Shown: positions 11,094-48,350 of the stretch, piece after piece
Layout: each line of letters begins with the position of its first letter
Position numbering within the stretch: position 1 is the stretch's first letter
Virus record (IMG/VR): IMGVR_UViG_3300042402_005830
Span: 1-64,000 of that record
Reading direction: 5' to 3' (one strand)
DNA from: a virus
Length of the DNA stretch: 64,000 nucleotides
Notes under the pieces: model-generated
What the model was told of the DNA's origin: nothing
Seen by the model: only the letters and a program-made list of their open reading frames with translations
Databases searched by the model: none
Program-made: the position numbers and the translations under genes

Positions 11094-11147
11094 AACTTAA
11101 GTATAATAAAAAAACCCCATACCGTCAAATAGGTAAGGGGTTCGAAG

Positions 11148-28052: not shown

Positions 28053-28781
28053 ATGAAAGAAAATTTAAGAGTTCTTGAAGCTCACGAGTCGGGTAAAGGT
28101 ATATTGGTTGAACACGATGCCGGATATATATCACCAACCCATCCTGAAAATGAAAAAATTATAAGTGAATCCAAAACTTTAAGAGATTATTCAAAACCAT
28201 TTATTTTTTATGCCGTTCTTCAAAAATCTGATACACCAAACAGAAACGGAAGATTATATCCCGAAAAAATATTAAAAAGGGAAGCTGACAATTATAAGAG
28301 AATGATTCAAAAAGGGACATCCCTTTCCGAACTCAATCACCCTGAATCATCAATTGTGGATTTGGAAAGAGTTTCACATATTATAGATGATGTGTGGTGG
28401 GATGGAAAAACTTTGATGGGTAAATTAAGACTCCTCACCTCACCAGGTTTCCATGAAAGAGGAATTGTCTCAACACCTGGTGATATTGCCGCAAACCTTA
28501 TGAGACAAGGTTGTACGATGGGTATTTCATCAAGAGGGGTCGGTACTCTTAAGAAGAAGGGAGAACAGAATGAAGTTCAGGATGATTTTGAACTTATTTG
28601 TTTTGACCTTGTTTCTTCACCATCCACACCCGGAGCATATCTTTTTGACAAACCTGAAGATAAAAATAACTACGAAGAGAATATAGAAGAAGAAAAGAAC
28701 TTGAGAAAACCCGAATCAGAAAAAGGGATGGGTAAATCGCTTGATTTAATGAACAAACTTTCCGACTTTTTGGGTAGATAA
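28053..28781 (+). CDS. prohead protease (T4 gp21-like)
   Basis: NRNGRLYP, ELNHP, GISSRGVG, FDLVSSPS motifs. Confidence 0.93.
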   Translation: MKENLRVLEAHESGKGILVEHDAGYISPTHPENEKIISESKTLRDYSKPFIFYAVLQKSDTPNRNGRLYPEKILKREADNYKRMIQKGTSLSELNHPESSIVDLERVSHIIDDVWWDGKTLMGKLRLLTSPGFHERGIVSTPGDIAANLMRQGCTMGISSRGVGTLKKKGEQNEVQDDFELICFDLVSSPSTPGAYLFDKPEDKNNYEENIEEEKNLRKPESEKGMGKSLDLMNKLSDFLGR

Positions 28782-30357: not shown

Positions 30358-32160
30358 ATGGGAGCATTATTAGAAAGTGGTTTAGTTGGTAACATCGGTC
30401 TTAAGCACCTCAAAGTTATCAAGGAAGACACTATAAACAAATGGGACAAATTAGGTTTCCTCGAAGGGTTGGGTGGTCACTTAAAAGAAAACATGGCTCA
30501 ACTTTATGAGAACCAAGCGTCACACTTAATTAACGAAGCGGCAGCAACAGATTCATCAGGTTCTTTTGAAACTGTTGTTTTCCCAATCATCAGAAGAGTT
30601 TTCTCTAAGCTTTTGGCAAACGATATCGTTTCTGTCCAAGCGATGAACTTACCTATTGGTAAACTCTTCTACTTCGTTCCTAAAATTCAAAATTACGATA
30701 CAGGTAACCAACACTATCCACCCGTTGGATCACCTGAAGCTATTGCAGATTCTGTAAATAACCCAAACCAAGGATATGATACTGGTAAAAACCTTTACGA
30801 TAGATTCTACGAAGGTAACGAAGCAGCATTAGATCCTCCTGGTCTTTTCGATTATTCAAAAGGAAGATATAGTGCAATAACCTCAACCGCAGTTGTAACC
30901 CAAGTTTGGGATAGTACTACAGGTGATTTAGTCGCTTCAGGTTATGGTGCTGGCGAATATAGAAAAGTTCTTTTAACCCTTTCAGGATTCAGTAACGGAG
31001 GTTTTGGAAAACTTTTAGGACCCGATGGTAACATGGTGGATAGTGAAACATTCCTTTCAGACTTAGTTGTCAAGGCTAAGAACACAGGTGCGTTTTCAGG
31101 TGCAGGTTCAGGGAATTTATTATTCAGAGTTGTAACTCAAAAATATGGTAAAGGAATCGTTCAATACGGATCTCAAACATCAACAACATTCGGGGCTTCA
31201 AATACCGCAAATGGTGGGGCTTATGATGACATTTGTAGTGCTGACGGTAAGATTTACTTAGAAGTTGACCTTCAAGTCCCTTGTTCAATTGGTTCAGGAT
31301 CATTGGACGGATATTCAGGTCTTACAACAACCATTGCGGGTACAAGTGCGGCTGGTTCGCAGTTTGAGTGTTTTTACCGAATCTACGAAGAATTGGAATT
31401 CGAAGACAGAATTGGTGAAGTTTCATTTGATCTCGAGTCAGTTACAGTTTCTGTTTCTGAAAGAAAGTTGAGAGCACAATGGTCACCTGAACTCGCTCAG
31501 GACGTTGCTGCTTTCCACAACATCGATGCAGAAGCAGAATTGACAGCATTGTTGTCAGAACAAGTTGCTGCTGAAATCGACAGAGAAATCCTCAGAGACC
31601 TTAGAAAAGGTGCAGCATGGCAGTTAAGATGGGATTACAACGGATGGAAAAGAGGTACATCTGCTAACCCATTGACACAATACACACAGAAAGATTGGAA
31701 CCAAACATTGATCACTGCGATCAACCAACTTTCTGCACAAATCCACAAGTCAACTTTGAGAGGTGGTGCTAACTGGATCGTTGTTTCTTCTGAAATTTCA
31801 GCAATTTTCGACGATTTGGAATACTTCCACGTTTCAAACGCAGCTCCTGAACAGGATCAGTACAACATGGGTATCGAAAGAGTAGGAACACTCTCTGGTA
31901 GATATCAAGTTTACCGTGACCCATACTTCCCACCAAACCAAATCTTGATAGGTCATAAGGGAACGTCATTACTTGACACAGGTTACGTTTACGCACCATA
32001 CGTACCCCTTCAGTTGACACCAACAATGTATAACCCATTCAACTTCACCCCAATCAAGGGTATCATGACCAGATACGCTAAGAAAATGGTGAATAACAGA
32101 TTCTACGGTAGAATCACAGTTGATGGTGTTAGAACATTTGACTTAAGAGAATTGAGATAA
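30358..32160 (+). CDS. major capsid protein (T4 gp23-like)
   Basis: VSVQAMNLP, RKLRAQWSPELAQD..AFH.IDAEAEL, YAPYVPL, GIMTRY. Confidence 0.96.
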   Translation: MGALLESGLVGNIGLKHLKVIKEDTINKWDKLGFLEGLGGHLKENMAQLYENQASHLINEAAATDSSGSFETVVFPIIRRVFSKLLANDIVSVQAMNLPIGKLFYFVPKIQNYDTGNQHYPPVGSPEAIADSVNNPNQGYDTGKNLYDRFYEGNEAALDPPGLFDYSKGRYSAITSTAVVTQVWDSTTGDLVASGYGAGEYRKVLLTLSGFSNGGFGKLLGPDGNMVDSETFLSDLVVKAKNTGAFSGAGSGNLLFRVVTQKYGKGIVQYGSQTSTTFGASNTANGGAYDDICSADGKIYLEVDLQVPCSIGSGSLDGYSGLTTTIAGTSAAGSQFECFYRIYEELEFEDRIGEVSFDLESVTVSVSERKLRAQWSPELAQDVAAFHNIDAEAELTALLSEQVAAEIDREILRDLRKGAAWQLRWDYNGWKRGTSANPLTQYTQKDWNQTLITAINQLSAQIHKSTLRGGANWIVVSSEISAIFDDLEYFHVSNAAPEQDQYNMGIERVGTLSGRYQVYRDPYFPPNQILIGHKGTSLLDTGYVYAPYVPLQLTPTMYNPFNFTPIKGIMTRYAKKMVNNRFYGRITVDGVRTFDLRELR

Positions 32161-32208: not shown

Positions 32209-32446
32209 ATTCTTCAATTTTATGAACTTTTCTTATTGATTTAGAAATCACTTCAGCTTCTTCCAAACTCAATATTCCCCTCCTTTGAGCATAGTTACAA
32301 CATTCCATCAAACAAAATAATGATTGATCGTAATTTAAATTATCAATAAATTTTTCCAAATCCGAAATAGAATAATAATTTATTGAATTGAATAAGGTAC
32401 CTAATGGTTTTTCTTCTTGTGTATTGTCCATGATGGAAAAATACAA
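32207..32446 (-). CDS. hypothetical protein
   Basis: 79-aa ORF (start possibly MDNTQ at 32431). Confidence 0.65.
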   Translation of the reverse strand: MYFSIMDNTQEEKPLGTLFNSINYYSISDLEKFIDNLNYDQSLFCLMECCNYAQRRGILSLEEAEVISKSIRKVHKIEE

Positions 32447-32476
32447 ATTTTCAGGATATTTATCAATAAAAAAAGT

Positions 32477-33376
32477 ATGTCGCAGTTAAAAGAAGATTTA
32501 GCGGTGTGGTTTGGAAAAAAGAAAAAAGGTAAAGGATCAAAACAACCACAAGGTCCGTGGGTTAATATATGTAGAAAAAAAGAAGCAGGTGGTCATCCTG
32601 AGTGTGGTAGAGAAGAAGGAGGTAAGAGGGGTTATCCTGTGTGTAGAGCAAGATCTGTAGCATCGAAGATGAGTGAGGAGGAAAAGAAATCAGCTTGTGC
32701 GAGAAAAAGAAATAAAGAAAAGAAAGATCCACAAACAGGAAAAGGTCAAAAACCAACAAGAATACAAATTAAAGGATATAAAAAAGAATCAGTTATGGAA
32801 AAACCAATTTTTCAGTGGACAACACTCAACGAAAACAAAACCATACTCAGTGAAGGTATGACATATCATATTGAAAATCACATTCCTTTACATGAGAATG
32901 TTTTTAGGATGGGATCCGAGAGTTATTTCTCTTTGTTCAGAGAAGCAAGAAGTTTAGGATTTGAAAACTTCACAAACTCTATTGATAGATGGTTGATTAA
33001 AAACACCGATATTGGAATTTTTGAGTTATATGAGAATGAGTTGGTTCCTTTGGATATTCCAATGTTATATGAGGCGGAATACCAAGGAAAGAATGTCCAA
33101 TTAAACAAACCAATGAGAGGAGGAAGTGGTGGAAAAAAATTCAAGGTATATGTTAAAGATCCCAAAACGGGGAATGTAAAGAAAGTCTCATTTGGTGCTG
33201 CGGGAGGTGGTGGGTCTTTGGCTGTAAAACTTAAAGATCCTGCGGCTAAAAGATCATTTGCTGCTAGACACAAATGTCATACAACCAAAGACAAAACAAC
33301 AGCTTCTTATTGGGCTTGTAGATTACCAAGATACGCTAAGTCTTTGGGGTTAAGTGGGGGTGGTACATGGTGGTAA
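32477..33376 (+). CDS. multi-domain basic Cys-containing protein (DUF5872/DUF6321-like modules of T4-like phages)
   Basis: WVNICRK..CGR..YPVCR module and AEYQG.....KP...KKF.VYV....RSFAARHKC...YWACR module; start reassigned after TATTTAT 32457. Confidence 0.65.
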   Translation: MSQLKEDLAVWFGKKKKGKGSKQPQGPWVNICRKKEAGGHPECGREEGGKRGYPVCRARSVASKMSEEEKKSACARKRNKEKKDPQTGKGQKPTRIQIKGYKKESVMEKPIFQWTTLNENKTILSEGMTYHIENHIPLHENVFRMGSESYFSLFREARSLGFENFTNSIDRWLIKNTDIGIFELYENELVPLDIPMLYEAEYQGKNVQLNKPMRGGSGGKKFKVYVKDPKTGNVKKVSFGAAGGGGSLAVKLKDPAAKRSFAARHKCHTTKDKTTASYWACRLPRYAKSLGLSGGGTWW

Positions 33377-33636
33377 ATCCATATTCTGAAGAAGTTCAAG
33401 ATGAAGTAATTCTTCGTGTCTTCAAAGAAGATGTGGAGAACGATGAACTTGTTTGGCATCGTGATCGTAGGGATAGGAAAGTAGAGATTGTAGAATCCAA
33501 CGAGTGGTTCTTTCAGTTTGAAGATCAATTGCCTATAGAGATGAAAAAAGGGGATGTATTTAACATCCCCAAAGAAAGTTATCACCGAATTATTAAAGGT
33601 AAAAATGATTTAATAGTTAAAATTTTTGAATATTAA
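33367..33636 (+). CDS. cupin-fold protein
   Basis: ELVWHRD...W.FQ...P......G....IP...YHRIIKG. Confidence 0.7.
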   Translation: MVVNPYSEEVQDEVILRVFKEDVENDELVWHRDRRDRKVEIVESNEWFFQFEDQLPIEMKKGDVFNIPKESYHRIIKGKNDLIVKIFEY

Positions 33637-33784
33637 ACTTTTTTAATCTTATTGAATAATTTGTGGTAGTTAAAAAATCTTTATGATATAAATTAAAATA
33701 ATCTACAGCCGAATCAGCACTGTTTGCTTCTGTTTCGTTGATAACTTTTCCGTTCTTTAGTAGTTCGTATGTTTTGAAATTCAT
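33617..33784 (-). CDS. small hypothetical protein (55 aa, not in ORF track)
   Basis: MNFKTYELLKNGKVINETEANSADSAVDYF...; TATTTAT at 33802-33808. Confidence 0.45.
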   Translation of the reverse strand: MNFKTYELLKNGKVINETEANSADSAVDYFNLYHKDFLTTTNYSIRLKKFNIQKF

Positions 33785-33831
33785 TGGTCAAAAACTTTCC
33801 CATAAATATTCAAAATCGTGTAAAAATTACA

Positions 33832-36615
33832 TCAATTAAAACTATATTTAAAACTAAAATTCATTGTTGATCCGAACCTTGTTTCTTGCCATCTATTATC
33901 ACCTTCATCTAACTTTTCATTTCCATTTAAATCTTGGAACATCACCAAATCTTGTGATAATAAATCTCTAATATTCATTTTAAATTCAAGATTTTCAAAC
34001 TTTTTGGATAACTGAAGATCAATTAAATTTCTTCCGTTTTCCCAAACTGAAGGTTCTTGAACATTTCCCACCACAAATATTCTTGGACCAATTACATTGT
34101 AAGTTGTTGAAACATTCCATCCATTTGGTGTGTTATAGAATAATCCAACATTATAAACATAAGGTGATTGTCCTTGTAATGGTCTTCCGTCTTCTGACCC
34201 TGCAAAACCTTCAAGATTAACCTCTGAATCAATTAACGAAATATTGGAAGTAATGTCCAAATTTTCAATCAAATTTACCTTACCCTCTATTTCAACACCT
34301 CTGATATGTGCTGATTCAACATTTGAATAATAAATTTCTGGTGCTCCTGAAATTCCTGTTCTATTAATTGCTTCTATTGGGTTATTTAAATTCTTATTGA
34401 AGAATGAAACCGAAATAATTTCACTTAAGTCAGGATAGTATTCAAATCTTATTTCTTGATTATTAATTCTTGTTCTTTCAAGATATGAATTACCGGTAAT
34501 AATATTATCTTGAATAAAATTATAAAAAGTAAACGGGGCGAGTTCTCTAAATTCAGGTCTTGAAACACTTGAATATATAGAAGATCTTACTTGAGTTTTT
34601 TCATTTATGGAATAAACCAAATTAAGGGAGGGTAAAAGATCTGTAATATTACTATTGATATGGATTGGTTTGTTGGAACCAAATTCTGTATAATAGAAAT
34701 TTTGGTTGTAATTTTCCAATCTTAATCCTCCAATCAATCTCAAAGATTTCCATTTTGAATCAAGTGAAATATATCCTGAATTAAGATTGGAGTTTGCATC
34801 ATAACTATCATCCACATTTGTTGATTCATCCAATTTAAACCCTCCCATCCCATTTTGTAAGGTTCCCATATTTTCTTGTGAAAATATTTGACTTGGATCT
34901 AATAATAGTAAAGAACTATCAAAAACTCCTCCTTGAGGTCTATATTGTGAATAACCTAAATTTCTTGAAATAAAATTTCTTTCTCTGTATTGGTGGTATG
35001 AACCGATTTTAACTTCGTTTTCTAAATTCAAAAAAGAAAAACTACGAGACCAATCAAGTCTTCCTGAATAAAGATTTTCATCAGAATAAGACCAAAACAT
35101 ATTCCCAGCAGCTGTTGGAATTGTTCCGTTGGTTTGAATAACTGCCGCATATTGAGAATTTGGATCATCTTCTGTGAGAGAATATTTCCTATAAACAATT
35201 CTTCTTAAGTTCGGTATATCTCTTCTCACATTATTGTAACTCAAAGTCCAATTTAGTTTTGAGTTATCAAAAGTATGATTTCCGATTAATTGTTGTGATA
35301 AGAAATTATTTTGTGTGTACCAAAAGTTTGTCGATCTTTCCCATTGTCTTGGGTCATTATCCATCTCACGAACTCCACTTCTTACATTCACTCTATCTTC
35401 AGAATTTATTGTATAGAAGTTTTTTAATTTTATAGTGTGGTTAGGATTTAACAAAAAAGAAAAATTTAATAACCCACTGTTTGCAATTGTTTGAACAAAC
35501 ACAGAATCATTCAGTTCCATCTTTTGAACAACACCTAGTTCTTGTTCTTCAAAATCTCTTCTTGTGGTTGTGGTGGTGTTATATTGATTGGAATAATTGT
35601 AAGCCCCACTTACAAGAAGTGTTTTATTTCCGATTGAATAGTTTCTTCCAATCGTGTATTGAATTGTTGAAGAAGGTGGGGCAATTCTGTAATGTGTTGA
35701 CCAATCTGTTTGAATAAGTGTTGCGAGTGTTGCTCTTTCTTGTCTTGATAAATTCACAAATTCCGATGTGTTCGGAATATTGTCAGGTAAACACCTAAAT
35801 TCAGACCCTAAACCCAAAATATCCATTGGACTTCCTTGATATGTTCCAAACCTTTGAAATGAGGTCATTCCATTAACTGAAGTTCCAATCTGTAAGGTTT
35901 GGTATGTAATCTCTTTTGGTTCGGTTGTATTGATATTTATCAAACCACCAGTGAATTCGCCTGAAAGATCCGCAGAAGCCGACTTATTGATATATAAATT
36001 ATCAATCATATTGGATGGAAAAAGATCAAAAGAAAATGCTCTTCTATCCGATTCTGTTGATGGTAGGGGTGATCCGTTAATTAATGCGAAGTTGTACCTG
36101 TCATTTAGACCTCTGACGATCACGAATTTATTTTCTTGAACTGTGACACCACCCACCCGTTTAAATACATCAGAAGCTCTTGAATCAGGTGTTTTATTAA
36201 ATGTTTCAGATGAAACCCCATCAATAACCGATGCTGATTTCCTTTGAAGAGAAACCATTTGTGTTGCCGATTGTTGATTGGCTTGAGCAACAACGGTTGC
36301 TTCACCAATCTCCATAAGGGTGGGTTTTAAAGATATATTCAAAACCCCGTCCCGATTAACCAAACTTACATTTTGAACTTGATTATCATATCCGATAAAA
36401 CTGACCCGAACATCATAATTTCCCGAAGGAATGCCTTTGATAGTGAAATTACCATCCAAATCACTCATCGTACCCTTTCCAAGTTCTTCAACATATACCG
36501 TAGCGCCAATCAACGACTCCCTTGTTTGAGAGTCGTTGACGGTACCAGATAAATTATATTGTGAAAAAGAACTTAAAGATAAGAATAAAAATATAAGTAG
36601 GTTAAAATATTTCAT
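33832..36615 (-). CDS. TonB-dependent outer-membrane receptor
   Basis: Signal peptide, carboxypeptidase-regulatory-like N-domain (SLIGATV...GT.SD.DGNF), plug (VRGLNDRYN..LING), SRPEFRELAPF, barrel ending FSFKYSFN. Confidence 0.93.
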   Translation of the reverse strand: MKYFNLLIFLFLSLSSFSQYNLSGTVNDSQTRESLIGATVYVEELGKGTMSDLDGNFTIKGIPSGNYDVRVSFIGYDNQVQNVSLVNRDGVLNISLKPTLMEIGEATVVAQANQQSATQMVSLQRKSASVIDGVSSETFNKTPDSRASDVFKRVGGVTVQENKFVIVRGLNDRYNFALINGSPLPSTESDRRAFSFDLFPSNMIDNLYINKSASADLSGEFTGGLININTTEPKEITYQTLQIGTSVNGMTSFQRFGTYQGSPMDILGLGSEFRCLPDNIPNTSEFVNLSRQERATLATLIQTDWSTHYRIAPPSSTIQYTIGRNYSIGNKTLLVSGAYNYSNQYNTTTTTRRDFEEQELGVVQKMELNDSVFVQTIANSGLLNFSFLLNPNHTIKLKNFYTINSEDRVNVRSGVREMDNDPRQWERSTNFWYTQNNFLSQQLIGNHTFDNSKLNWTLSYNNVRRDIPNLRRIVYRKYSLTEDDPNSQYAAVIQTNGTIPTAAGNMFWSYSDENLYSGRLDWSRSFSFLNLENEVKIGSYHQYRERNFISRNLGYSQYRPQGGVFDSSLLLLDPSQIFSQENMGTLQNGMGGFKLDESTNVDDSYDANSNLNSGYISLDSKWKSLRLIGGLRLENYNQNFYYTEFGSNKPIHINSNITDLLPSLNLVYSINEKTQVRSSIYSSVSRPEFRELAPFTFYNFIQDNIITGNSYLERTRINNQEIRFEYYPDLSEIISVSFFNKNLNNPIEAINRTGISGAPEIYYSNVESAHIRGVEIEGKVNLIENLDITSNISLIDSEVNLEGFAGSEDGRPLQGQSPYVYNVGLFYNTPNGWNVSTTYNVIGPRIFVVGNVQEPSVWENGRNLIDLQLSKKFENLEFKMNIRDLLSQDLVMFQDLNGNEKLDEGDNRWQETRFGSTMNFSFKYSFN

Positions 36616-36616
36616 T

Positions 36617-38209
36617 TTACTTATTGATTACAACCTTCTGAACATCACCCGATGTTTGAACGAAATAAATTCCGTTTGAGAAGTTTGTGGTGTTAATTGT
36701 TACAGGTGCAAAATCTTCGTAAACTCTTTGACCAACTTGGTTTGTAATTACAATTGGTGTTCTCTTTGGGGAAGTAACAACCAAGTAATCTGAGGTTGGG
36801 TTTGGATAAACATTCAAAGAAACTTCATTTTGATCTTCAACACCAATAACAATTGGGTTTGCTAGAAGTGGGTGAGTAAAGTCAGCTCCGAGTGCTGGTG
36901 AATTACTTTCACTCAATCTTCCGTCAGGGGTTAAACCAAGATCAACAAACAAATTAACCCAATCGATTTGTTCAATAGTTGTGAGTGAATCATTGTAATT
37001 TACTCCGAAGAAAGTATTATAAAAATCTTCAGTTCCCGAAACACAATTCGATCCAACAGGAAGATCTGCCAAGATATTGTGAGCAAAAACCAAATTACCT
37101 GTTTGAACATTAACTTGTGTTGATGTACCCTCAATAGATACACCTTTCTCCCATCCCGTAACAAGTGAATTGAAAACAGATGTTGAGGTGTTTCTTCTCA
37201 ATCTGAAAGCCTTTTCAAAAGTCTCTCCAACAGGAAGGTCATTCAAAATATCATCACCGAAAGGTCCGACCAATGTTACATTTGAAAAGACAGGTGCGGT
37301 TTTTGGTGTATTTTCTGAACCTTGACCGTCGTTGTCTGACTCAAAAGCGTTAGAGTCACCTACCGCGTCATACATATACTTGTTTCTGATAGAAAGTGCG
37401 AATTGAACTTTTCCTCTGTAGCCAAAATCGGTATCAAAGTCATCATCAATGCCACTATAAGCGATAAGGTGTTTTGCATTTACAGTTCCACCGAACCACT
37501 CAAAAGAATCGTCACCCGAATATGAAACTTGCACAAAATCTACAAGAGTTCCCGATCCAATAGATCCAAAGGTAATACCATTGATTTCTTTGTTTGGTTC
37601 AAGAGCAATACCACAGAACTCAATTCTTACATACTTGATAACACCCGAGTTGTCTGAATCATCAGTTCCACCATATTCGGTGTCTAAAGAGGCGGGAATT
37701 CCTTCTATGTTTGCAACACCACTTGGTTGATTGTTTATTGCATTTCCCAAGATTACAATACCTCCCCAATCTCCTTCTGCCCTTTCACCCACAGGTTGGT
37801 TTGATGTAAAAACGATTGGACTTGATTGTGTCCCTTCTGCGATAATTTTTGAACCCCTTGTGATTATTAAGGTTGCTTGAGTTGATGCATCTCCACGAAT
37901 AATAGTCCCTGGTTGAATTGTCAAAGTTGCACCGTTTTTTACATAAATTTTGTTTTGAATTTCAACGACACCACCGATAGTTGTATTAGTTGTAATGTCC
38001 GAATTCAACACCATAGATGGGGATGGGTATTCTGTGTTTTGTGGATCCCAATTAGACCATCCGTATGTCCAATCTGTTGATGGTGTGTTATCCGTTACGG
38101 GGAACGCTCCTTTGTAATTTACATAATCCCATGTCCATTCTTGGGCGTTTGCAGTAGAAAGACCCATAAATACTGCGAGGGTCATCAAAATTTGTTTTCT
38201 CATAATCAT
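36617..38209 (-). CDS. secreted beta-helix protein with a T9SS type A C-terminal sorting domain
   Basis: Signal peptide; GDWGGIVILG, DDSFEWFGG, DDDFDTD beta-helix motifs; VYPNPT...GIYFV...KVVINK CTD. Confidence 0.88.
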   Translation of the reverse strand: MIMRKQILMTLAVFMGLSTANAQEWTWDYVNYKGAFPVTDNTPSTDWTYGWSNWDPQNTEYPSPSMVLNSDITTNTTIGGVVEIQNKIYVKNGATLTIQPGTIIRGDASTQATLIITRGSKIIAEGTQSSPIVFTSNQPVGERAEGDWGGIVILGNAINNQPSGVANIEGIPASLDTEYGGTDDSDNSGVIKYVRIEFCGIALEPNKEINGITFGSIGSGTLVDFVQVSYSGDDSFEWFGGTVNAKHLIAYSGIDDDFDTDFGYRGKVQFALSIRNKYMYDAVGDSNAFESDNDGQGSENTPKTAPVFSNVTLVGPFGDDILNDLPVGETFEKAFRLRRNTSTSVFNSLVTGWEKGVSIEGTSTQVNVQTGNLVFAHNILADLPVGSNCVSGTEDFYNTFFGVNYNDSLTTIEQIDWVNLFVDLGLTPDGRLSESNSPALGADFTHPLLANPIVIGVEDQNEVSLNVYPNPTSDYLVVTSPKRTPIVITNQVGQRVYEDFAPVTINTTNFSNGIYFVQTSGDVQKVVINK

Positions 38210-38255
38210 CCTTTTTTATTTTATTGTAAATTATACGAATATAATTACAAGAAAA

Positions 38256-38283
38256 CAAAGTTAGGGTGTTAAGAGAATGTTAA
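38256..38283 (-). promoter_or_regulatory. TTAACA-N5-TTAACA direct repeat (OmpR/PhoB-type box) next to a TAACTTTG -7 element
   Basis: 11-bp periodic repeat at 38267-38272 and 38278-38283 upstream of the T9SS/TBDT pair. Confidence 0.5.
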
Positions 38284-38301
38284 CTCAAAAATAAACTTCT
38301 A

Positions 38302-38556
38302 TTATTTTTTACCCCTACAATAAGATCCTGAACATCTTTTTTTACCATCAAGACCCGCAATTTTACCTTTACACACTTGAACAGCATATCCATTCGCATA
38401 AGCACTTGGATAAACATCATATTTAGACTTCGCCGCAGAAATTCCACGAGCGCATAATTTGTTGGATTTTTTCTTTTTTTCGGTTAGGTAAGCCTCCAAG
38501 AGAAATCTTCTCATAATTTCTTTGAGGTCGTTATTGTTTAAATTAATCTTACTCAT
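38302..38556 (-). CDS. small basic protein (DUF5872-like)
   Basis: LCARG..AAK.KY.VYPSAYANGYAVQVCKG. Confidence 0.65.
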   Translation of the reverse strand: MSKINLNNNDLKEIMRRFLLEAYLTEKKKKSNKLCARGISAAKSKYDVYPSAYANGYAVQVCKGKIAGLDGKKRCSGSYCRGKK

Positions 38557-40028
38557 TTTTTACTCACTACTTGGAAGTTTATTTCGTTCTTATAACTAAC
38601 AATGTTGTTATTTTGATTTATTTGTAAATCAATAAAGTATTCATTAGGTATTTTATCCCTTAAATCCAATATAAAAAAGTATTCTTGAGGAGTCCTGTTG
38701 AGTTCAGTCCAATCCGTCACTTGAACTTCTGTTTGACCCTCCTTCACATAAATCCTATATTGAACATCTATATCATCAACAATATGTGATTTTGTATATG
38801 CTCTTTTAGGTATTACGGAAACTTTTCTTTGATCCGTGTTTAATATTTTTTCTGAGTATTTAATACCGTAGAAAGTGAATCCATATTCTTGAGTGTTCGG
38901 TAAAGAAGTATCATATTGAAGACTATCACTGAATGACTTCAGTTCAAATTCATTTTCAATATTTGATAAAGAAGTACCGTTGAAAATCAAGTTTTTCCAC
39001 TTGTCGGTGTATAAACAATTTAAATTACCACCTGTAATACCAGGTAATGTTACTTTATATATCCCCTTACTAATCCTACAAGTAGATAAATTAGACAACC
39101 CCGTAACCACCGTTCCATCTGGATCTAAAATATCAACTACAGGATTTGAATCTAAATTTATTGGAGATCCATTTCTTGAAATATATAGATAAAGATCATT
39201 GGAGGTTCCTTCTGTAAAATTAGGCCTACTGTCGTCAATTATGTCGTCCCATTTTGAGTATAAAAATGGTTCATAGAATGTTTGTGTATGTCTTGTGAAG
39301 AAACCAACTGAATAAGACTCACTTAATCCTGTTAAGTTCTCAACTTGAGGAACAAACGCTACACCCCACCCCACACTATCTGTAGTACCGCCAGTCAATA
39401 TATTATTGATTTCATTAGTCATATCAAATGAAATGTCTTCATCACCAAATTCAAAATGTTGTGTATCTACTATTGTAATTGCGGAATAATTTACTTTCCC
39501 ACTTGTTCCTGAATTATCATTAATATAAATTCCATCCGTACTCCAATCGTTTATCAATTCTCTTTGGAAGTAGTTTGATGGTCTTAAAGAATATGATTTA
39601 TCTGTTAAATCGAAATCATCTGTTGTGTTTTGAATATAATCATATCCAACACCTTCATCCCAAGTTTGAACACTTCCCGACGCACCATTTGATTTTGGAA
39701 TTCTAAATAATATAAGATCGAAAGATGTGGCTCGTCTTCTTCCATCACTTGTTGTTTCATTTAACAAATCTGAAAATGAAGAAGTATTGGTCATTCTTAA
39801 TTCGTGAGTAATATTTGTGTTACAACCAAAATTTAAATAACCATCGGTAATTTTTTGTTCAAGACCTGTAAGATCTAAATCAAAAATAAATCTTGAAAAG
39901 TTTTTTGTTCCGATTGCGGGAAAATTTGAACCAAAAAATAATTCAGTTACAGGGTTCCTACCTGTATTGACCTCTGAATTGAATAAAATGGTATTATTTC
40001 TTTTAAAATACGAACGGTGATCAGACAT
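38553..40028 (-). CDS. putative virion structural protein
   Basis: 491 aa, beta-rich, SRFIFDLD/WDEGVG motifs; late motif at 40044. Confidence 0.6.
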   Translation of the reverse strand: MSDHRSYFKRNNTILFNSEVNTGRNPVTELFFGSNFPAIGTKNFSRFIFDLDLTGLEQKITDGYLNFGCNTNITHELRMTNTSSFSDLLNETTSDGRRRATSFDLILFRIPKSNGASGSVQTWDEGVGYDYIQNTTDDFDLTDKSYSLRPSNYFQRELINDWSTDGIYINDNSGTSGKVNYSAITIVDTQHFEFGDEDISFDMTNEINNILTGGTTDSVGWGVAFVPQVENLTGLSESYSVGFFTRHTQTFYEPFLYSKWDDIIDDSRPNFTEGTSNDLYLYISRNGSPINLDSNPVVDILDPDGTVVTGLSNLSTCRISKGIYKVTLPGITGGNLNCLYTDKWKNLIFNGTSLSNIENEFELKSFSDSLQYDTSLPNTQEYGFTFYGIKYSEKILNTDQRKVSVIPKRAYTKSHIVDDIDVQYRIYVKEGQTEVQVTDWTELNRTPQEYFFILDLRDKIPNEYFIDLQINQNNNIVSYKNEINFQVVSKK

Positions 40029-40050
40029 ATTGATATTTTATCTATAAATA

Positions 40051-41595
40051 TCAATTTATCTTAAAGTTCTGACTTAAAACTTTTTGATATGCGTCCATCA
40101 TTTTTTTCATCAGTTCCGTAGTTGTAGATCCGTTGGTTGTTGTTGGAACTGGTGGTAATCCATGGAAGGAATGAACATGTGTAATTAGGTATTGAATTAT
40201 GTAATTTAATAGTTCAAGTAACTCCTCACCTCTTACCATTGATGAAACATTCCCTACAACATTTTCCGAAATAAAATCACCTGAAACACCATAATTGGTT
40301 CCTTCTAAATTAATTTGTTTTTTCCCTGGTATTACTGATTGGTGTGAAAGGAAATAAAACTTATCCGCTCCGAATATTTGAACTGTAGAATTCTCCGATG
40401 ATGTTTTCACATCCTCCAAATTAATTAATTTTGGTTGAACCGGATTTCCTTTTTTGTTTTTTGAGAATATAAGTCCAAAACCTCCAAATGTTTTAGATTC
40501 CGTCGTACTCAATGAAATTCCAACTTGAGACTGAAATGAAAGAGTATTGACCAAAGATAGTGGATCTGATGTTTGAGAAGAAACATTCAAAACATTTTTG
40601 GTGGGTCTATAATAGAATGGAAAAACATTCCCCAACGAAGGAGAAATAGCAAGGGTCGAATTTTTAAAATTAGTTAATAATGTGTTGATAAAATCAACCG
40701 AACCTGACATAGTAAGACCCTGAAACCCTTCGGTATATGCCAAACTTTTATTTTGAATTTCAGTATCAGGTAAAATATTCTTTGTTTTTATATTCTCACC
40801 TTCATTTATTCTATAAAAATAAACATTACCTGTGAAGTTAGATGTACTACTTAAGTTTATTATATCCCACTCAACCAAATATACAAGATTTGCATCGGTT
40901 TGCTCGGCTTTGATAAGTTTTTTTAAAGTTTTTTCAGAAGTGGTAGTTTCCAAATTAGAAATTTGAATGAACGCCCTTCTTGGGTTTTCGTATGGGAAAG
41001 TTGATCCATTTGCATTTCTCAAACCGATTGACTTTGCCTTACCAGAACGAAGAATAATATCTTCATCTTTTAAAATAATGTCCGTATTGTATCTTCCAAG
41101 AATAGCTATGTCATTTGGTTCAGGAAAAATAGATGCCGTTTTTGGGTTTTTATAACTTCCATCGATATTCTTGAGATCAGGTGACATCTTGTTTCTATCA
41201 CCAGTATTCAATAATGTTTCCGCATTTGCCGAAACATCTTTGTATTGTAAAGTAGGTGAGGAAATCGGACCCTGCATATAAAATTTATTCTTATCATCTT
41301 GAAATTCAGGATTTGAATAAACAATATGGACATACTCACCAACTTTTGGTATTTGTCTGAAGAAATAAGGCATCAAAGAGTTGAACACAAAAGGATCTTT
41401 TTTGGTCCAAAAATATTTAGAAGGAATATCACCAGGAATGTCAAAAACTTCGTTTGGGAAATTTGCCTTGACTATGTCATTTACATACCTTGTGGTGGGA
41501 AATGCTCTTATCCTACCCAACACAAGTGGATCATCTACTGAAACACACACTCCAGGATATATTATTCTTTTTGATGCTGCACTTGCGTCTAACAT
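40051..41595 (-). CDS. baseplate hub/spike protein (gp5/VgrG OB-fold-like)
   Basis: GVCVSVDDPLVLGRIRA...PKVGEYV N-terminus; C-terminal HVH motif. Confidence 0.7.
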   Translation of the reverse strand: MLDASAASKRIIYPGVCVSVDDPLVLGRIRAFPTTRYVNDIVKANFPNEVFDIPGDIPSKYFWTKKDPFVFNSLMPYFFRQIPKVGEYVHIVYSNPEFQDDKNKFYMQGPISSPTLQYKDVSANAETLLNTGDRNKMSPDLKNIDGSYKNPKTASIFPEPNDIAILGRYNTDIILKDEDIILRSGKAKSIGLRNANGSTFPYENPRRAFIQISNLETTTSEKTLKKLIKAEQTDANLVYLVEWDIINLSSTSNFTGNVYFYRINEGENIKTKNILPDTEIQNKSLAYTEGFQGLTMSGSVDFINTLLTNFKNSTLAISPSLGNVFPFYYRPTKNVLNVSSQTSDPLSLVNTLSFQSQVGISLSTTESKTFGGFGLIFSKNKKGNPVQPKLINLEDVKTSSENSTVQIFGADKFYFLSHQSVIPGKKQINLEGTNYGVSGDFISENVVGNVSSMVRGEELLELLNYIIQYLITHVHSFHGLPPVPTTTNGSTTTELMKKMMDAYQKVLSQNFKIN

Positions 41596-41597
41596 AA

Positions 41598-41810
41598 TTA
41601 GATGTTGGTTCTTTCTTTATACTTATTCAATAGTTCATTATAGACAGTTTCAGTAATCAACATATGTTCTGAGATTTTTTCAATCATTTTTTTTGATTCA
41701 TCAAAATCTCTCCTTAAGACATCTAAAACCTCTGTCACTTTTTTGTTGGGAGTGTTGTCAAAGTCCGAAATTACGGATTTTATTAATTTTTGTTCTTGTT
41801 CTGTTATCAT
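41598..41810 (-). CDS. hypothetical protein
   Basis: 70-aa coupled ORF. Confidence 0.65.
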   Translation of the reverse strand: MITEQEQKLIKSVISDFDNTPNKKVTEVLDVLRRDFDESKKMIEKISEHMLITETVYNELLNKYKERTNI

Positions 41811-43747
41811 ATCAGTTTTCCAAATAAAGATGCTGGTGATAGGTAAGGTCCTGCTATTGAAATTAACGGTTGGGAAGGAGAACCCAAATTAATTGTCGAA
41901 ACTTGAACTTTAGAGTTCTCATCCATCTCTCTCTTATAAGCACTAATTAAAGAAAAATCATGAATCAAACCCAAATTGGGTGATCCATCAGGTAAATCTC
42001 CAGTCGGATAACCTAATTTATCTAAAGTTTCTGTGTGATTGTTAAATGCTCTCACGGCAGAAAATCCTTCCAATAAAGAAGAAAAGGCAAGGGCGGGTAG
42101 TGGTATTTTCAATTTTGGAGCAAGTAACCTGAGAAGGGTTAATAATTCATCCGTTATACTTCTACATCTTTTATAGTCACGAATTAAATTAACAACAACA
42201 AATGCGATAGATAAAAGTTTTGTAATGATAATTATGTAAGTATTTTTACTTTTTTCACTAATATCTTTATTTAAACTAACGATTAGATTATAGATTTGTT
42301 TTTTGATCAAAACAACTAATACTTCTTTGAATTTTGCTTGAATTTCTGAAATTAGGACCACCATTATATTTCTCATTTCTCTTAAGAAAGTTTGAAAATC
42401 TTCCACCGCATCTACAAAATTTTGTTTTAAGGCTTTGAACATTATGAATATGGGTAACAAAACTTTAGGGCTAATCAAAGACATCACAATAATCTTTGGT
42501 AATTGTTTTATTATCTCTAAATTTAAAACAAGATTGAAGTCAATCGTAGGTAGTGAAGGTCCCCACTCTGGATTTTGAGAAATATCTTTTATAGCTTCGA
42601 TTAATTCTTCTTGAAGTTGTTCATCGGTTTTATCACCGGCATTTTCCCATATGTTGGAAATTGAATTGACTACTTGATTGTAGTCGATTGGTAATTTTAC
42701 ATTACCACAATCCTCAAATTCAACCACACGATTCAATGTGTTATTAACATCGTTATTAACATCTCTTAATTCGAATTCTGTCAATTCAAAAAACGACTCA
42801 TCAATTTCTTCTAATATTGAAACTTTAGAAGTTCCACCAACCTCAATCTCTTGAGTGTTGTCAAAACACAAACCAAGAATTCTTTGTATTATTTTCAAAG
42901 CAACTGAAACATCCTCCAATTTTTTAGAACCTACTTCTAAATCCATGTCGACCGAAGATGTAAGAACATTTAAAGAGTTTTTTACAATGTCCGAAAAATC
43001 AAATATTTGAATTGATTGATAATAATCAACTAAGAAATCGGCGACTAAAGTTGGAGAATTTAATTTAGGTTGAAGAGTAACCTCAAAAAAATCTCCGTAG
43101 TTTCCTGTATTCTGATCTTGAACAACATATTTTATATCAAAAAGATCCTGATTAGAAAATCCTTTATAAAATTGTCCATATTGTTCTGAATAAGATTGAT
43201 CACTTTGAGTTCTATTATATAACTCACGGTTCATCGAAAAAGGGTTGTTCTGTATGGATAAACTTTCTTTTTCGTATAAGATCTTGGTTTTATTATTGTC
43301 AGGAGAATACTTCAAATATTCTAAAAGATCAATAGAGTCAAGTTTTATGTATATTTTTTCGTTGGGAATATACTGTTGCTCTTGCTCACACCCTAAAGCT
43401 TTGATTGTTGAGTCCGCTAATAAAGTTGGTAATTGATTTTTCACCTCTCTCGACGCATCCAACATCGCCTTCAACAATATATCAATAGTTTCATTTCCTG
43501 TTTCAGGATTTCTAACCAATTCAATTAATTTGTCATATTGATTTTTGACGGCAGACGAATTGAATGCTTCGGAAGCTTTTGTTTTAGCTGAGTTTAAAGA
43601 TTCAGAGAAAAATTTGTTACTTGCGGTCTCAGCATCACCTGATTTTTTTTCAATATCTTTTATTTGTTTAGATATTTTTTTGTATTTTTGACCACTTTTG
43701 ATTTTTCCCTTTATCTCATCAAATTCGTTATTTAAATCAAGTGCCAT
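41807..43747 (-). CDS. large helical hypothetical protein (tail/baseplate region)
   Basis: 646-aa ORF within the operon. Confidence 0.7.
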   Translation of the reverse strand: MALDLNNEFDEIKGKIKSGQKYKKISKQIKDIEKKSGDAETASNKFFSESLNSAKTKASEAFNSSAVKNQYDKLIELVRNPETGNETIDILLKAMLDASREVKNQLPTLLADSTIKALGCEQEQQYIPNEKIYIKLDSIDLLEYLKYSPDNNKTKILYEKESLSIQNNPFSMNRELYNRTQSDQSYSEQYGQFYKGFSNQDLFDIKYVVQDQNTGNYGDFFEVTLQPKLNSPTLVADFLVDYYQSIQIFDFSDIVKNSLNVLTSSVDMDLEVGSKKLEDVSVALKIIQRILGLCFDNTQEIEVGGTSKVSILEEIDESFFELTEFELRDVNNDVNNTLNRVVEFEDCGNVKLPIDYNQVVNSISNIWENAGDKTDEQLQEELIEAIKDISQNPEWGPSLPTIDFNLVLNLEIIKQLPKIIVMSLISPKVLLPIFIMFKALKQNFVDAVEDFQTFLREMRNIMVVLISEIQAKFKEVLVVLIKKQIYNLIVSLNKDISEKSKNTYIIIITKLLSIAFVVVNLIRDYKRCRSITDELLTLLRLLAPKLKIPLPALAFSSLLEGFSAVRAFNNHTETLDKLGYPTGDLPDGSPNLGLIHDFSLISAYKREMDENSKVQVSTINLGSPSQPLISIAGPYLSPASLFGKLI

Positions 43748-44118
43748 TATTTGAGATGGTATTTACCATCATCAAGTTTGTCAATGTCTTTTCCAATCAA
43801 ATTTTGAAGAACATCATCATCAATTTCACTCAAACTAAAGTTTTCTTCATTGTTGTTATTTGACTTTTCCCAAATTTGAGATTGAAGTTTTGATAAACTT
43901 AATTTTTTCTCGATGGTGTCATTTATTATTTTTTGTTGTTCTTTAATAATTGGTCCCAAAACTGTAAGATCTTCAGCATCTTTCATTAGTGATGCCATCT
44001 TATTTTGTAATCTTATTGCGGTATTTCTTTGTTCAACTAATTCGTTATAAATTTCTTGCATAAGACCCAAAATAGAATCTTTAGATAATTTAATTTCTTT
44101 TCTACGAGGTTTTGTCAT
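43747..44118 (-). CDS. coiled-coil hypothetical protein
   Basis: 123-aa ORF. Confidence 0.7.
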   Translation of the reverse strand: MTKPRRKEIKLSKDSILGLMQEIYNELVEQRNTAIRLQNKMASLMKDAEDLTVLGPIIKEQQKIINDTIEKKLSLSKLQSQIWEKSNNNNEENFSLSEIDDDVLQNLIGKDIDKLDDGKYHLK

Positions 44119-44126
44119 ATCTATAA

Positions 44127-44870
44127 TTATTCGGAATTCAATTTATTTAGGAATTCAAAATAAAGACCCCTGTATTTTTTTATTGAACTTCTTACTTCTT
44201 TGGTTGACATGTTTGTCATTTCACGGATAGATAATAAAATGACATTTTTGTTAAATTTGTTGTTGTCGTTTCCCAAAAAAACTCGTTCATAGTTTTTCAA
44301 TAACTCTACTAACGCATAACCCAATTTTATTTCATTTGTGTTTAAATCCGATTTCTCAATAAAATCCTCTAATTTTTCCACATACATCTCAATAATTTCG
44401 GTGGTTTCTACATTTTCGTATTCTAAATAATATATTAAGTCAGGACGATTTTCTAAATTGGACGAAATATCTTCATAAGATATTCTTCGGTTCTGATCTT
44501 TTTGGTCTTTTATAATTTGACCCATTAGGTAATTCTTACATATTGTTCCAAAATAAGAATATGCTTTTTTATTTTTTTCAGGTTTGAACTTATCTACCTT
44601 TGTCAATAAAAAAGAATGTGTATCACTGTGAATGTCAGCAAAGTCCATATCTTTTCTATATAACTTATATCTTCTTATGATTGAGGAAATCATCTTATCC
44701 AAAGGTGCATGGAGGAATTCATCATAAATACGATTTTTCTCACCCCATGATTTCGCTTCAAGGAACATGCGCACGGCATGTTCCTCTCTTTCTGCGAAAT
44801 AATTCTTTTCTTTCGGCTTTCGCCCTTTTTTTACCTGTTCTGTGTTAGTTGTCGCTGAGGCTGGGTTCAT
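44127..44870 (-). CDS. phage sigma-factor-like protein (T4 gp55-like late sigma)
   Basis: KNYF N-terminus and FKPEKNKKAYSYFGTICKN, resembling the gp55 region-2 FDPEK..NPFAYFTQI motif. Confidence 0.6.
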   Translation of the reverse strand: MNPASATTNTEQVKKGRKPKEKNYFAEREEHAVRMFLEAKSWGEKNRIYDEFLHAPLDKMISSIIRRYKLYRKDMDFADIHSDTHSFLLTKVDKFKPEKNKKAYSYFGTICKNYLMGQIIKDQKDQNRRISYEDISSNLENRPDLIYYLEYENVETTEIIEMYVEKLEDFIEKSDLNTNEIKLGYALVELLKNYERVFLGNDNNKFNKNVILLSIREMTNMSTKEVRSSIKKYRGLYFEFLNKLNSE

Positions 44871-45678
44871 CCACTAATTCAGGTTCGTATTTTATTTCCC
44901 TATCCTGAATAAAGAAGTATTCTTTTTTCGCCACTTCCAACCAAAACTTCGCCTCATCAGGACTTAAGGGATTGTCACCGAACTTATAATTCCAAAAGAT
45001 GGATCCCAATCTCATATTCGTATGTTTGTAACCAATTCTAGGAATGGTTCTTATTATTGCGGAATTATATGTCATTCTCATCAAGAATTCATATACAAAA
45101 GTTAACTTCATAGATTCTTTAAAACCACCGTAATCAATGAAAGTGTCTTTTCTGATTACCATACCACTACTTTGAAAGTTCTGAAAACGAGCAAGTAGAT
45201 CATTTGTTAAAAGTGAGTAGTCTAAGTTGAAGTTGGCAGCAAAAGTAGCTTCGTTAGTGAATCCTGCAAATTGGTTTTTCTCATCGACATCAACAACGAC
45301 AGGTAAAAACCCTTGTGATTCAGGATATGCTTTTTTATGAATTTCGACATGTTTAAACCAAATCGCAGAATATTCGTCATCAAATTCACAAAAAGAAACC
45401 CAATCATTCTTCGCTTTTGAGACCCCGTAGTTCACTTGTGATTGAAAGGATGGATCTCCTTCAAAAGTTTCAATTCTTACAATGTCACTCAAGGATCCAA
45501 AATCATAATCGGTCAAAAATGTTTGAAGGGATTCTTCTTCAGTAGGAACAATCAATAATTCAGTAGGTAATACCTTTTGATTTTGAATTGATTCGATCAA
45601 CTTACCAAAGTATTCATCAAAATCTTTACTCTTCGATGATTTAATTGGTAAAATTACACTTATATTTGAGGTTTCCAT
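44845..45678 (-). CDS. GT2-like glycosyltransferase
   Basis: ISVILP, VNYGV..A..DWVSFCEFDD, YGGF. Confidence 0.75.
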   Translation of the reverse strand: METSNISVILPIKSSKSKDFDEYFGKLIESIQNQKVLPTELLIVPTEEESLQTFLTDYDFGSLSDIVRIETFEGDPSFQSQVNYGVSKAKNDWVSFCEFDDEYSAIWFKHVEIHKKAYPESQGFLPVVVDVDEKNQFAGFTNEATFAANFNLDYSLLTNDLLARFQNFQSSGMVIRKDTFIDYGGFKESMKLTFVYEFLMRMTYNSAIIRTIPRIGYKHTNMRLGSIFWNYKFGDNPLSPDEAKFWLEVAKKEYFFIQDREIKYEPELVDEPSLSDN

Positions 45679-47022: not shown

Positions 47023-47629
47023 TTAATATATTATTTTTATAATAATTTATAAACTCTTCCAAAGAGTAAATCTTTTTATCGTGTTCAAAAGAGGAGTTCT
47101 GTTCATTTGAGAATAAAACCATGTGTTTCATCCATTTTTTATACTCTTTTATAAGAGCAGTATTACAAGTTACCAACACATCGATGTCTTTAAAGATTTT
47201 ATCAATTGTTTTGTTATTATAGAAAATAACCTCTTCAATCTCACATCCAAACTTGGATAAGAAAAAGAGTGTTGACGGTTTTGATTTACCGAACTCGTCA
47301 GAAACAATTACAATTTCATTTTCATCTCTTAATTCCTTATAAATCTTATCCAAACTTACAAAGGTGTTCATCTCTGTTGAAGGAGCGTGACCAAAAATTG
47401 TCATAGGATTTTCAACATATATAAAATCATAAAGTTCCTCATCAGATTTAAATTTAAAGTGATCTTTGATAATTTCAGTATTGATTGGCCTTACAATCTC
47501 ATACTTGAAATCATCGGACACCTCTTCCTCCCCAACCTCCAACTCTTCAATCATCAACTTCTCGTAAGTAGATTCCAATTTTTTAATGGTGTCCCGAAGA
47601 ACACCATTTACCTCAAACGCTATTCTCAT
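47015..47629 (-). CDS. HAD-like 5'(3')-nucleotidase-like protein with degenerate motif I
   Basis: MRIAFEVNGVLRD (DxD replaced by ExN). Confidence 0.55.
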   Translation of the reverse strand: MRIAFEVNGVLRDTIKKLESTYEKLMIEELEVGEEEVSDDFKYEIVRPINTEIIKDHFKFKSDEELYDFIYVENPMTIFGHAPSTEMNTFVSLDKIYKELRDENEIVIVSDEFGKSKPSTLFFLSKFGCEIEEVIFYNNKTIDKIFKDIDVLVTCNTALIKEYKKWMKHMVLFSNEQNSSFEHDKKIYSLEEFINYYKNNILNV

Positions 47630-48342: not shown

Positions 48343-48350
48343 TTTTTTAA

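Follow-up and report, generated by a model that had tools for sequence, protein, structure and literature searches.

A phage-borne TonB-dependent transporter and its beta-helix partner: a candidate phosphorus-uptake cassette of host type in freshwater jumbo phages

A two-gene cassette in a probable jumbo phage

Two adjacent minus-strand genes, one for a TonB-dependent transporter (TBDT) of 927 amino acids and one for a beta-helix protein of 530 amino acids (hereafter the partner) that is predicted to leave the cell by the type IX secretion system (T9SS), lie next to the head genes of a phage in IMG/VR virus record IMGVR_UViG_3300042402_005830, of which the first 64 kb (64,000 nucleotides, hereafter the window) were analysed. 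Both genes are intact, and the cassette that they form probably boosts the uptake of a nutrient, most likely phosphorus, in infected cells. The reading that we favour, with an assurance only a little better than even, is that of a host-derived auxiliary module for phosphorus scavenging under the control of a regulator of the host. The record behind the window is a contig of 75.7 kb with an estimated completeness of 25%, so that the full genome should measure close to 300 kb, and the carrier is best explained as a T4-like jumbo phage of about this size infecting freshwater Flavobacteriales of the Crocinitomicaceae type.

The partner gene (36617..38209, minus strand) comes first in the cassette and the TBDT gene (33832..36615, minus strand) second, and the junction TAA-A-ATG leaves a spacer of 1 nt between them. 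The original prediction, made from the letters of the DNA alone, had described such a pair, with a T9SS C-terminal sorting domain (CTD) on the beta-helix protein, and the open reading frames (ORFs), the domain profiles and the junction sequence bear it out.

From its N-terminus, the TBDT shows a CarbopepD_reg_2 extension at residues 22-108 (36292-36552, E 1e-20), a Plug domain (PF07715) at residues 125-222 (35950-36243, E 5e-9), and a barrel to which profile searches assign the whole span 33835-35358, with matches to TonB_dep_Rec_b-barrel (PF00593, residues 420-882, E 3e-25) and to OMP_b-brl_3 (PF14905, E 3e-28). The matches to PF07715, PF00593 and PF14905 are all above their cut-offs and follow the order of a plug and then a 22-stranded barrel; TIGR01782 scores 178 bits, under its subfamily cut-off of 310. 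A hydrophobic, signal-peptide-like N-terminus and a TonB-box-like motif, IGEATVVA, ahead of the plug were recognised by eye only, as was the alignment of this motif with EIGQITVK and ELGPVTVTAK of cellular homologues. By these domains the 927-aa product is recognisable as a full-length TonB-dependent transporter. Identity with SusC or RagA was rejected, the match to TIGR04056 reaching 67.6 bits against a cut-off of 368 and being confined to the N-terminal extension; a polysaccharide utilization locus of the SusC/SusD type for glycans was rejected as well, with the SusC model far under its cut-off and the partner a beta-helix.

The partner begins with a Sec signal peptide whose end, ...LSTANA/QEW, has no cysteine and no lipobox, and it terminates in a type A sorting domain of T9SS (residues 467-530; 36620..36811, minus strand) recognised both by Por_Secre_tail (PF18962, residues 467-527, 32 bits against a cut-off of 27) and by TIGR04183 (28 bits against 23). 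Its profile matches in the PDB are exclusively to T9SS CTDs, chains 7pzj and 8glk_D, and all its homologues carry the family PF28492 (Beta_helix_4) in the precomputed assignments of Pfam 38. An AlphaFold2 (AF2) model built from an alignment of 74 partner sequences, about half of them metagenomic and seven viral including that of the window, predicts a right-handed beta-helix followed by the CTD (pLDDT 86.5, pTM 0.81); it supersedes an earlier model from 16 sequences (pLDDT 65), for which Foldseek gave values below 1e-3 only to CTDs. The best Foldseek neighbours of the modelled helix are pectate lyases of families PL3 and PL9 (3t9g_A, probability 1.00, TM-target 0.63; 1ru4, probability 0.99), and those of the CTD are the CTD of RgpB and the translocon-bound CTD of NucA. 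By its C-terminal domain the protein therefore qualifies as type A cargo of T9SS, its export itself being predicted.

The 74-sequence alignment has 88 invariant columns, and the partner of the window agrees with every one of them. Among the invariant features of the family are the motifs DDDFDTDFGYRG and SDNDxxGS and many Asp residues, and one may speculate that such acidic invariant motifs on a pectate-lyase-like helix hint at the metal-bridged binding of an anionic ligand. A role of either protein as a virion component was rejected because both have export signals.

Residence in phage genomes, insertion site and selection

The cassette is a regular part of a group of phages. The same neighbourhood, running from the gene for the Gp23-type major capsid protein (MCP; 30358-32160, plus strand, PF07068 E 8e-72) through the TBDT and the partner to the ORFs upstream of them, was found in eleven other viral contigs (L003-L009, L020-L022, L027), each with a different IMG metagenome number and with protein identities of 75-99%. 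Contigs of DNA run X5, an independent run not flagged as a possible origin of the present contig, span the 3' junction, the junction between the two genes and the 5' junction without differences and at an even depth of 6-10.

In two related, near-complete phages (G004 and G006, of 290,887 and 294,914 bp; loci L160 and L161), whose MCPs are 77-78% identical to that of the window, homologues of ORF 32417-33376 and of ORF 38302-38556 lie only about 440-600 bp apart, and the other flanking genes are syntenic. Since these relatives have the flanks in order and lack the pair between them, the pair represents an insertion of 4.4 kb at the junction of two convergent gene blocks, and comparison with them places the limits of the cassette at 33640..38301. 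Such a convergent junction is a classic position for a moron or auxiliary gene. The 84-aa, Cys-containing ORF 38302-38556 (minus strand, phrog_27331, E 6e-13), situated directly upstream of the cassette and kept in all relatives, marks the 5' edge of the insertion. Chimeric assembly, the first concern with a find of this kind, was rejected on the strength of the eleven syntenic contigs, the junction-spanning DNA run and the empty site in two relatives.

Within the lineage of the window, at synonymous divergences (dS) of 0.7-1.4, the TBDT shows a ratio of nonsynonymous to synonymous divergence (dN/dS) of 0.04-0.10 and the partner one of 0.06-0.11, in the same range as neighbouring phage genes. 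Both genes of the cassette are under strong purifying selection, as judged from these alignments, in which the phage copies keep all invariant residues. The GC content of the cassette resembles that of its flanks.

Distribution among phages and probable descent from cellular genes

Partner homologues number more than 8,000, and a wider scan found the gene in 46 viral contigs. The best named homologues, with identities of 60-67% (partner) and 45-57% (TBDT), come from metagenome-assembled genomes (MAGs) of Crocinitomicaceae, Fluviicola, Lishizhenia and Cryomorphaceae. In maximum-likelihood trees of both genes, the phages of the group of the window (group A) and of a second group (group B) form one clade (SH-aLRT 99) placed among sequences of Crocinitomicaceae and Flavobacteriales. 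When all viral loci were included in the partner tree, 24 distinct viral sequences formed one clade, and three more made up a second, distant one.

Gene order separates phages from cells. A TBDT homologue lies on the strand of the partner in 75 of 80 cellular loci, and in 71 of these 75 it is upstream of the partner, nearly always directly; in every phage with both genes the partner precedes the TBDT. In the second phage group (L010-L019, L026) the pair sits among genes for an RNA ligase, a tRNA nucleotidyltransferase and a phosphoesterase, and its TBDT (853 aa, e.g. 9929-12490 of L015) has lost the CarbopepD_reg extension and kept the signal peptide, the TonB-box-like motif, the plug and the barrel. 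In related jumbo phages (L131-L141, L148, L149) the partner occurs alone, elsewhere in the genome. Phage G004, which is 99% complete and has the empty site described above, carries the partner near 166 kb (locus L139) and has no TBDT anywhere in its genome. The phage clade thus displays a reduction series, from the full pair through a pair whose TBDT lacks the N-terminal extension to the partner alone. We propose from these trees and gene orders that the cassette was taken once from a host of the Crocinitomicaceae type and later spread and was trimmed among related jumbo phages. The question of how related phages are equipped, raised with the original prediction, is thereby answered: further viral contigs hold homologous pairs, mostly of a single main clade, and some phages have the partner only or an empty site.

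Some more remote or doubtful records were encountered. The 635-kb megaphage LR745206.1 (L108) has, at 72164-89018, a very remote version of the pair in phage order and with TTAA-type repeats upstream; its partner is a lipoprotein of 431 aa with the lipobox ...FGVTSC and no CTD, and its TBDT corresponds to the "SusC" referred to in a passing remark of the Mar_Mega_1 paper (PMC9723777). Two short "Bacteriophage sp." records from human faeces, MT838075.1 and MT837092.1, show the cellular order of TBDT and then partner and nothing recognisably viral over the match, and are probably Bacteroidales fragments filed as phage; in MT838075.1, an unannotated contig of the human gut, the identity is 52% over partner residues 63-357. 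Among records of cellular origin, four titled Glaciecola, Sphingomonadales or Akkermansia (L105, which is CP034120.1, L054, L072 and L080) hold Crocinitomicaceae-like copies with T9SS CTDs, and probably reflect mislabelling or mis-binning rather than gene transfer. The viral contig L148, with a partner gene, and the Crocinitomicaceae MAG L056, with a cellular operon, share the metagenome number 3300042564, so that phage and candidate host co-occur in one sample.

Linkage of the cellular pair to PhoB/PhoR-like genes

Clues on function were provided by the cellular operons. Among the 37 cellular loci with full flanks, a gene for a regulator of the OmpR family follows the pair on its 3' side in 25, and in 19 of these it is accompanied by a gene for a small HisKA kinase. 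The best NCBIfam matches of the two proteins, at scores below the equivalog cut-offs, are to Bacteroidota PhoB and to PnpS/PhoR. In two genomes the kinase beside the pair is the most PhoR-like of the genome, with 173-178 bits against at most 115 for the others (a margin of about 60 bits), and among PhoB-like proteins the regulator ranks first or second. The gene neighbourhoods thus point to a genetic linkage of the cellular pair to phoB/phoR-like genes. The expectation that the pair might be found near pstS or phoRP was borne out as to a PhoB/PhoR-like two-component system and failed as to pst: the operon flanks show no further pst or pho genes, genes for RNase HII, ExoVII, ChaN and ExbB being seen instead.

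The same layout is known from characterised bacteria. The "PhoBR operon" or PUSIV of Flavobacterium johnsoniae comprises PhoR (Fjoh_0543), PhoB (Fjoh_0544), a TBDT with the Pfam set PF07715/PF13715/PF14905 (Fjoh_0545) and the "FII" exoprotein with a pectin-lyase fold (Fjoh_0546), and both Fjoh_0545 and Fjoh_0546 are among the proteins most strongly induced on depletion of inorganic phosphate (Pi) (PMC8115612). The statement in the original prediction that a TBDT/beta-helix pair of Flavobacterium is induced by Pi starvation was therefore correct in substance. More widely, the family of BT4055/BT4056, Fjoh_0546 and ElpS, in which a TBDT and a putative "lid" are encoded side by side, extends over 621 genera (Price and Arkin, bioRxiv 10.1101/2023.03.17.533168), and ElpS of Caulobacter is a lipoprotein induced by phosphate starvation (PMC2996285). 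The phage pair was assigned to this BT4055/BT4056-Fjoh_0545/0546-ElpS family from fold, Pfam content and operon architecture rather than from direct alignment to these proteins. A connection of the phage cassette with phosphorus is accordingly suggested by homology of architecture to the F. johnsoniae PhoBR operon and to Caulobacter ElpS.

A gene for a PhoH-like ATPase in the window, cited in the original prediction in favour of phosphorus, was dismissed as evidence: such genes are common in phages, and the present one is kept in relatives without the pair and is hence not linked to the cassette.

A tandem repeat common to phage and cellular promoters

The intergenic region ahead of the partner (38210..38301, minus strand), conserved in group A phages, consists of repeats, then TAACTTTG, then an AT-rich leader. 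Its most conspicuous element is a tandem direct repeat, TTAACATTCTCTTAAC (TTAAC-N6-TTAAC with an 11-bp period; 38268..38283, minus strand), located some 60-75 nt upstream of the start codon of the partner. This repeat is the sole match to the pattern in the 64-kb window and is conserved in the phage group of the window. Repeats of this kind, with two to four units at a spacing of 10-11 bp, precede the cassettes of the second group, of the partner-only phages, of a 176-kb contig and of the megaphage; in the partner-only jumbo phages they take the form GTTAAG-N5-GTTAAG.

The strict pattern TTAA[CG]-N6-TTAA[CG] was found upstream of 12 of 20 phage cassettes, the remaining ones having looser TTAA repeats at 10-11 bp, and in only 5 of the 123 remaining intergenic regions of these loci (6e-9 by Fisher's test, a value that does not represent a probability for independent samples, the cassettes being related). 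In cells, about 38 of 62 loci have it in the last 300 nt before the TBDT, compared with about 11% of other cellular intergenic regions of equal AT content; it is seen in the spacer between TBDT and partner as well. Tandem repeats with an 11-bp period reflect the mode in which regulators of the OmpR/PhoB family bind DNA, and the repeat at 38268..38283 is accordingly a candidate site for a host regulator of this family. The phage loci contain no regulator or kinase gene, so that the repeat, if used, would be read by a host protein. In cyanobacteria, experiments have established TTAA-core tandem repeats as the Pho box (PMC11126600), and cyanophage genes are driven by the host PhoBR system (PMC10976474). 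Of the "Pho-box-like" repeat that had been noted upstream of the pair, its reality and its presence in both phage and cellular promoters can be upheld; it is a repeat of the type usual for the OmpR family rather than a proven Pho box, and literature searches turned up no Pho box for Bacteroidota. Matches to sigma-70-type promoters in the region are no commoner than in shuffled sequence.

Contigs from three metatranscriptome studies cover both genes and span their junction, and one RNA contig of 1 kb extends from the upstream phage gene across the promoter region into the partner. Those of run X16 cover every bin of an 11-kb stretch; contigs of this sort carry neither level, strand nor start site. 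The RNA contigs fit transcription of the cassette.

Genomic setting in the window

The minus-strand genes of the window form a long block that converges on a plus-strand head module, and the partner and the TBDT are the final two genes of this block. In addition to the MCP gene, profile searches against Pfam and PHROGs identified in the head module genes for the large terminase (22046-23812), the portal (23850-25709) and the head maturation protease (28053-28781), all on the plus strand. A terminator-like hairpin with a T-run (33550..33570, minus strand, from a consensus scan only) lies 260 nt 3' of the stop codon of the TBDT, overlapping the plus-strand ORF 33367-33636.

The pair had been described as lying between head and baseplate modules. 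The head side of this description stands; the label "baseplate" for ORFs 38553-46739 is unconfirmed, as neither Pfam nor PHROGs, nor one Atlas search with 41807-43747, yielded a function for any ORF within 38302-46739. ORFs 38553-46739 are conserved among related jumbo phages.

Farther along the same minus-strand block, at 47626-50832, are genes for the PhoH-like ATPase mentioned above, a dUTPase, a 3'-5' exonuclease and a glycosyltransferase. Elsewhere on the minus strand, a cluster of eleven tRNA genes together with a phage transfer-messenger RNA (tmRNA) with the tag GETFAKLQSVGLLQSEEVYAA occupies 1336-5749 and 11147-11538, fitting a jumbo phage with translation helpers of its own, and a phage FtsH-like ATP-dependent protease of 672 aa is encoded at 13048-15066 (phrog_4871, E 3e-241).

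A model for the cassette and points against it

Taken at its fullest, the scavenging module would operate as follows. In a host starved of phosphorus, a PhoB-like regulator would activate the phage promoter at the TTAAC-N6-TTAAC repeat, and the infected cell would produce the partner and the TBDT. The TBDT would be inserted by the Bam machinery and energised by TonB/ExbBD of the host; the partner would be exported via Sec and then the host T9SS, and would remain bound to the surface or be released as a capture or "lid" component. The import of a substrate that probably contains phosphorus would rise and feed the replication of so large a genome. For their TBDT, partner-only phages would depend on the host. 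As the cellular homologues adjoin a PhoB/PhoR-like two-component system, that regulator of the host probably also activates the phage cassette; together with this control, we infer surface localisation and the cooperation of the two proteins. The notion of a two-part outer-membrane module put forward in the original prediction can be retained insofar as the module is real, under selection, borne by a phage and, from its predicted signals and domains, in need of host Sec, Bam, TonB and T9SS; nothing points to nucleotides, the other substrate then envisaged.

Several observations weigh against a role in phosphorus scavenging under host control. The phosphorus link of this exact subfamily rests on analogy, and the PhoB and PhoR matches fall short of the NCBIfam equivalog cut-offs, with 212 against 270 bits and 178 against 500 bits, respectively. 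A search for PhoU (PF01895) in three host-like genomes gave no match, and in the same three the repeat is absent within 1.5 kb of PstS-like genes, which seem to be operon-internal. Tandem 11-bp repeats would suit any regulator of the OmpR family, and Pho-box predictions in phages are known to be unreliable (PMC10976474). From the RNA contig that runs through the promoter region it follows that phage promoters may also drive the pair, and from the coverage of all bins by run X16 that DNA carry-over in RNA libraries is possible. Finally, the partner-only phages imply that the importer is dispensable and that the partner may serve some separate purpose.

Part of this evidence would suit the uptake of a nutrient other than phosphorus, such as a metal chelate or an anionic glycan, under an OmpR-family system that merely resembles PhoBR. 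Other OmpR-family models match the regulator and kinase nearly as well as those of PhoB and PhoR, which both proteins miss at the equivalog level, the cellular operon flanks are devoid of pst and pho genes, the repeat is missing near PstS-like genes, and the partner has a pectate-lyase-like fold whose numerous invariant Asp residues might coordinate Ca2+ or a different metal, or else attach to a polyanion. Against this, the adjacent kinase is the clear best PhoR-like protein of its genome by some 60 bits, the four-gene layout of F. johnsoniae is induced by Pi depletion and is repressed under nitrogen and iron limitation (PMC8115612), and the Caulobacter homologue ElpS likewise is induced by Pi starvation (PMC2996285). 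We consider uptake of another nutrient unlikely.

TBDTs are common phage receptors, and the cassette could therefore serve to remodel receptors and exclude superinfecting phages, either by a partner that caps the host TBDT used as receptor or by a variant TBDT that replaces it, so that further adsorption is blocked. The partner-only phages suit such capping of the host receptor, and identities between phage and cellular proteins have dropped to 45-67%. In a preprint, a role of this kind is proposed for outer-membrane proteins (OMPs) of huge phages, in a passage citing the block of LamB by Lom of phage lambda (10.64898/2026.10.24.761521). An additional TBDT would, however, add receptors rather than remove them, and purifying selection has kept the invariant residues of the partner and, in the TBDT, the TonB-box-like motif, the plug and the barrel, as it would for a working importer. 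The retention of repeats of a host-type regulator is also hard to reconcile with a function needed in every infection. Exclusion appears to us improbable, yet it is a rival to be reckoned with. As for an artefact or passenger, whether from chimeric assembly, from cellular sequences straying into the viral bin or from recent functionless capture, the facts that the contig is a metagenome assembly only about 25% complete and that neither cassette gene matches a PHROG family count for little beside synteny in eleven other assemblies, a DNA run crossing the junctions at even depth, flank-like GC content, a single viral clade with phage-specific gene order, and dN/dS of about 0.05-0.1 over dS of 0.7-1.4, and we regard it as very improbable indeed.

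Comparison with known systems

Phosphorus scavenging under a host regulator, the reading that we retain, invites comparison with systems already described. With the PhoBR operon, BT4055/BT4056 and ElpS, the phage cassette shares the association of a non-SusC TBDT (Plug, CarbopepD_reg_2 and OMP_b-brl_3) with an adjoining surface protein of pectin-lyase fold, and in its cellular relatives, too, a PhoB/PhoR-like two-component system is encoded after the pair. It differs in its location in a phage genome, in the inverted order with the partner first and in the lack of regulator and kinase. Unlike BT4056, Fjoh_0546 and ElpS, the phage partner has a Sec signal and a T9SS CTD instead of a lipoprotein anchor, the copy with a lipobox being that of LR745206.

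The SusC/SusD systems also combine a TBDT with a capture or lid protein encoded beside it, and a CarbopepD_reg extension is found in both; the present partner, however, is a beta-helix and not of the tetratricopeptide-repeat fold of SusD, and it is predicted to be exported by T9SS rather than as a lipoprotein.

Cyanophages are well known for phosphate auxiliary genes under host regulation. The pstS and phoA genes of these phages resemble the present cassette in being a host-derived nutrient-capture component in T4-like phages, with tandem TTAA-core repeats upstream and no regulator in the phage, and cyanophage pstS without its permease recalls the partner-only phages. The differences are a Bacteroidota host, an outer-membrane TBDT with T9SS cargo as opposed to a periplasmic binding protein of an ABC transporter, and the status of host regulation, which for the present cassette we infer.

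Phage-encoded TBDTs as such are already known (PMC9723777; 10.64898/2026.10.24.761521). Those of huge phages, including the "SusC" of Mar_Mega_1 and LR745206 and the proteins of Lak phages, are, as far as the passages concerned describe them, 22-stranded TBDTs in large phages of Bacteroidota, as is the present one, which differs from the "SusC" of Mar_Mega_1 and LR745206 in being no SusC. According to the pertinent passages of the same two sources, a survey covered 1,603 OMPs of huge phages, with aquatic TBDT examples reported beside phosphate-acquisition genes, and transcription of a TonB-dependent receptor of Lak phages was detected. These passages mention neither a T9SS beta-helix partner nor homology to the pair of the PhoBR operon, and they contain no upstream repeat, phage gene order, single clade or partner-only forms.

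Significance

A further-reaching formulation, which we put forward tentatively and hold to be somewhat less than evenly supported, is that jumbo phages of Bacteroidota have wired a capture and import system into the Pi-starvation signalling of their host, with T9SS displaying a capture protein made by the phage. If true, auxiliary uptake regulated by phosphorus would for the first time be known beyond cyanophages, T9SS would have its first known cargo from a phage, and the series of full pair, N-terminally reduced TBDT and partner alone would show that the capture protein is the component that phages need.

To our knowledge, host-regulated phosphate auxiliary genes such as pstS and phoA have so far been described from cyanophages only. 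Freshwater bacteria are often limited by phosphorus, and a phage genome of 300 kb is a large phosphorus sink. The present cassette, if it functions as proposed, would extend the principle to heterotrophic Bacteroidota, to the outer membrane by way of a TBDT, and to T9SS as an export route for phage proteins. It also offers a natural experiment on the widespread and uncharacterised BT4055/56-Fjoh_0545/46-ElpS system of 621 genera, in which the trimming carried out by phages would point to the beta-helix partner as the key component, and it could serve as a marker of phosphorus-limited infections in lake time series.

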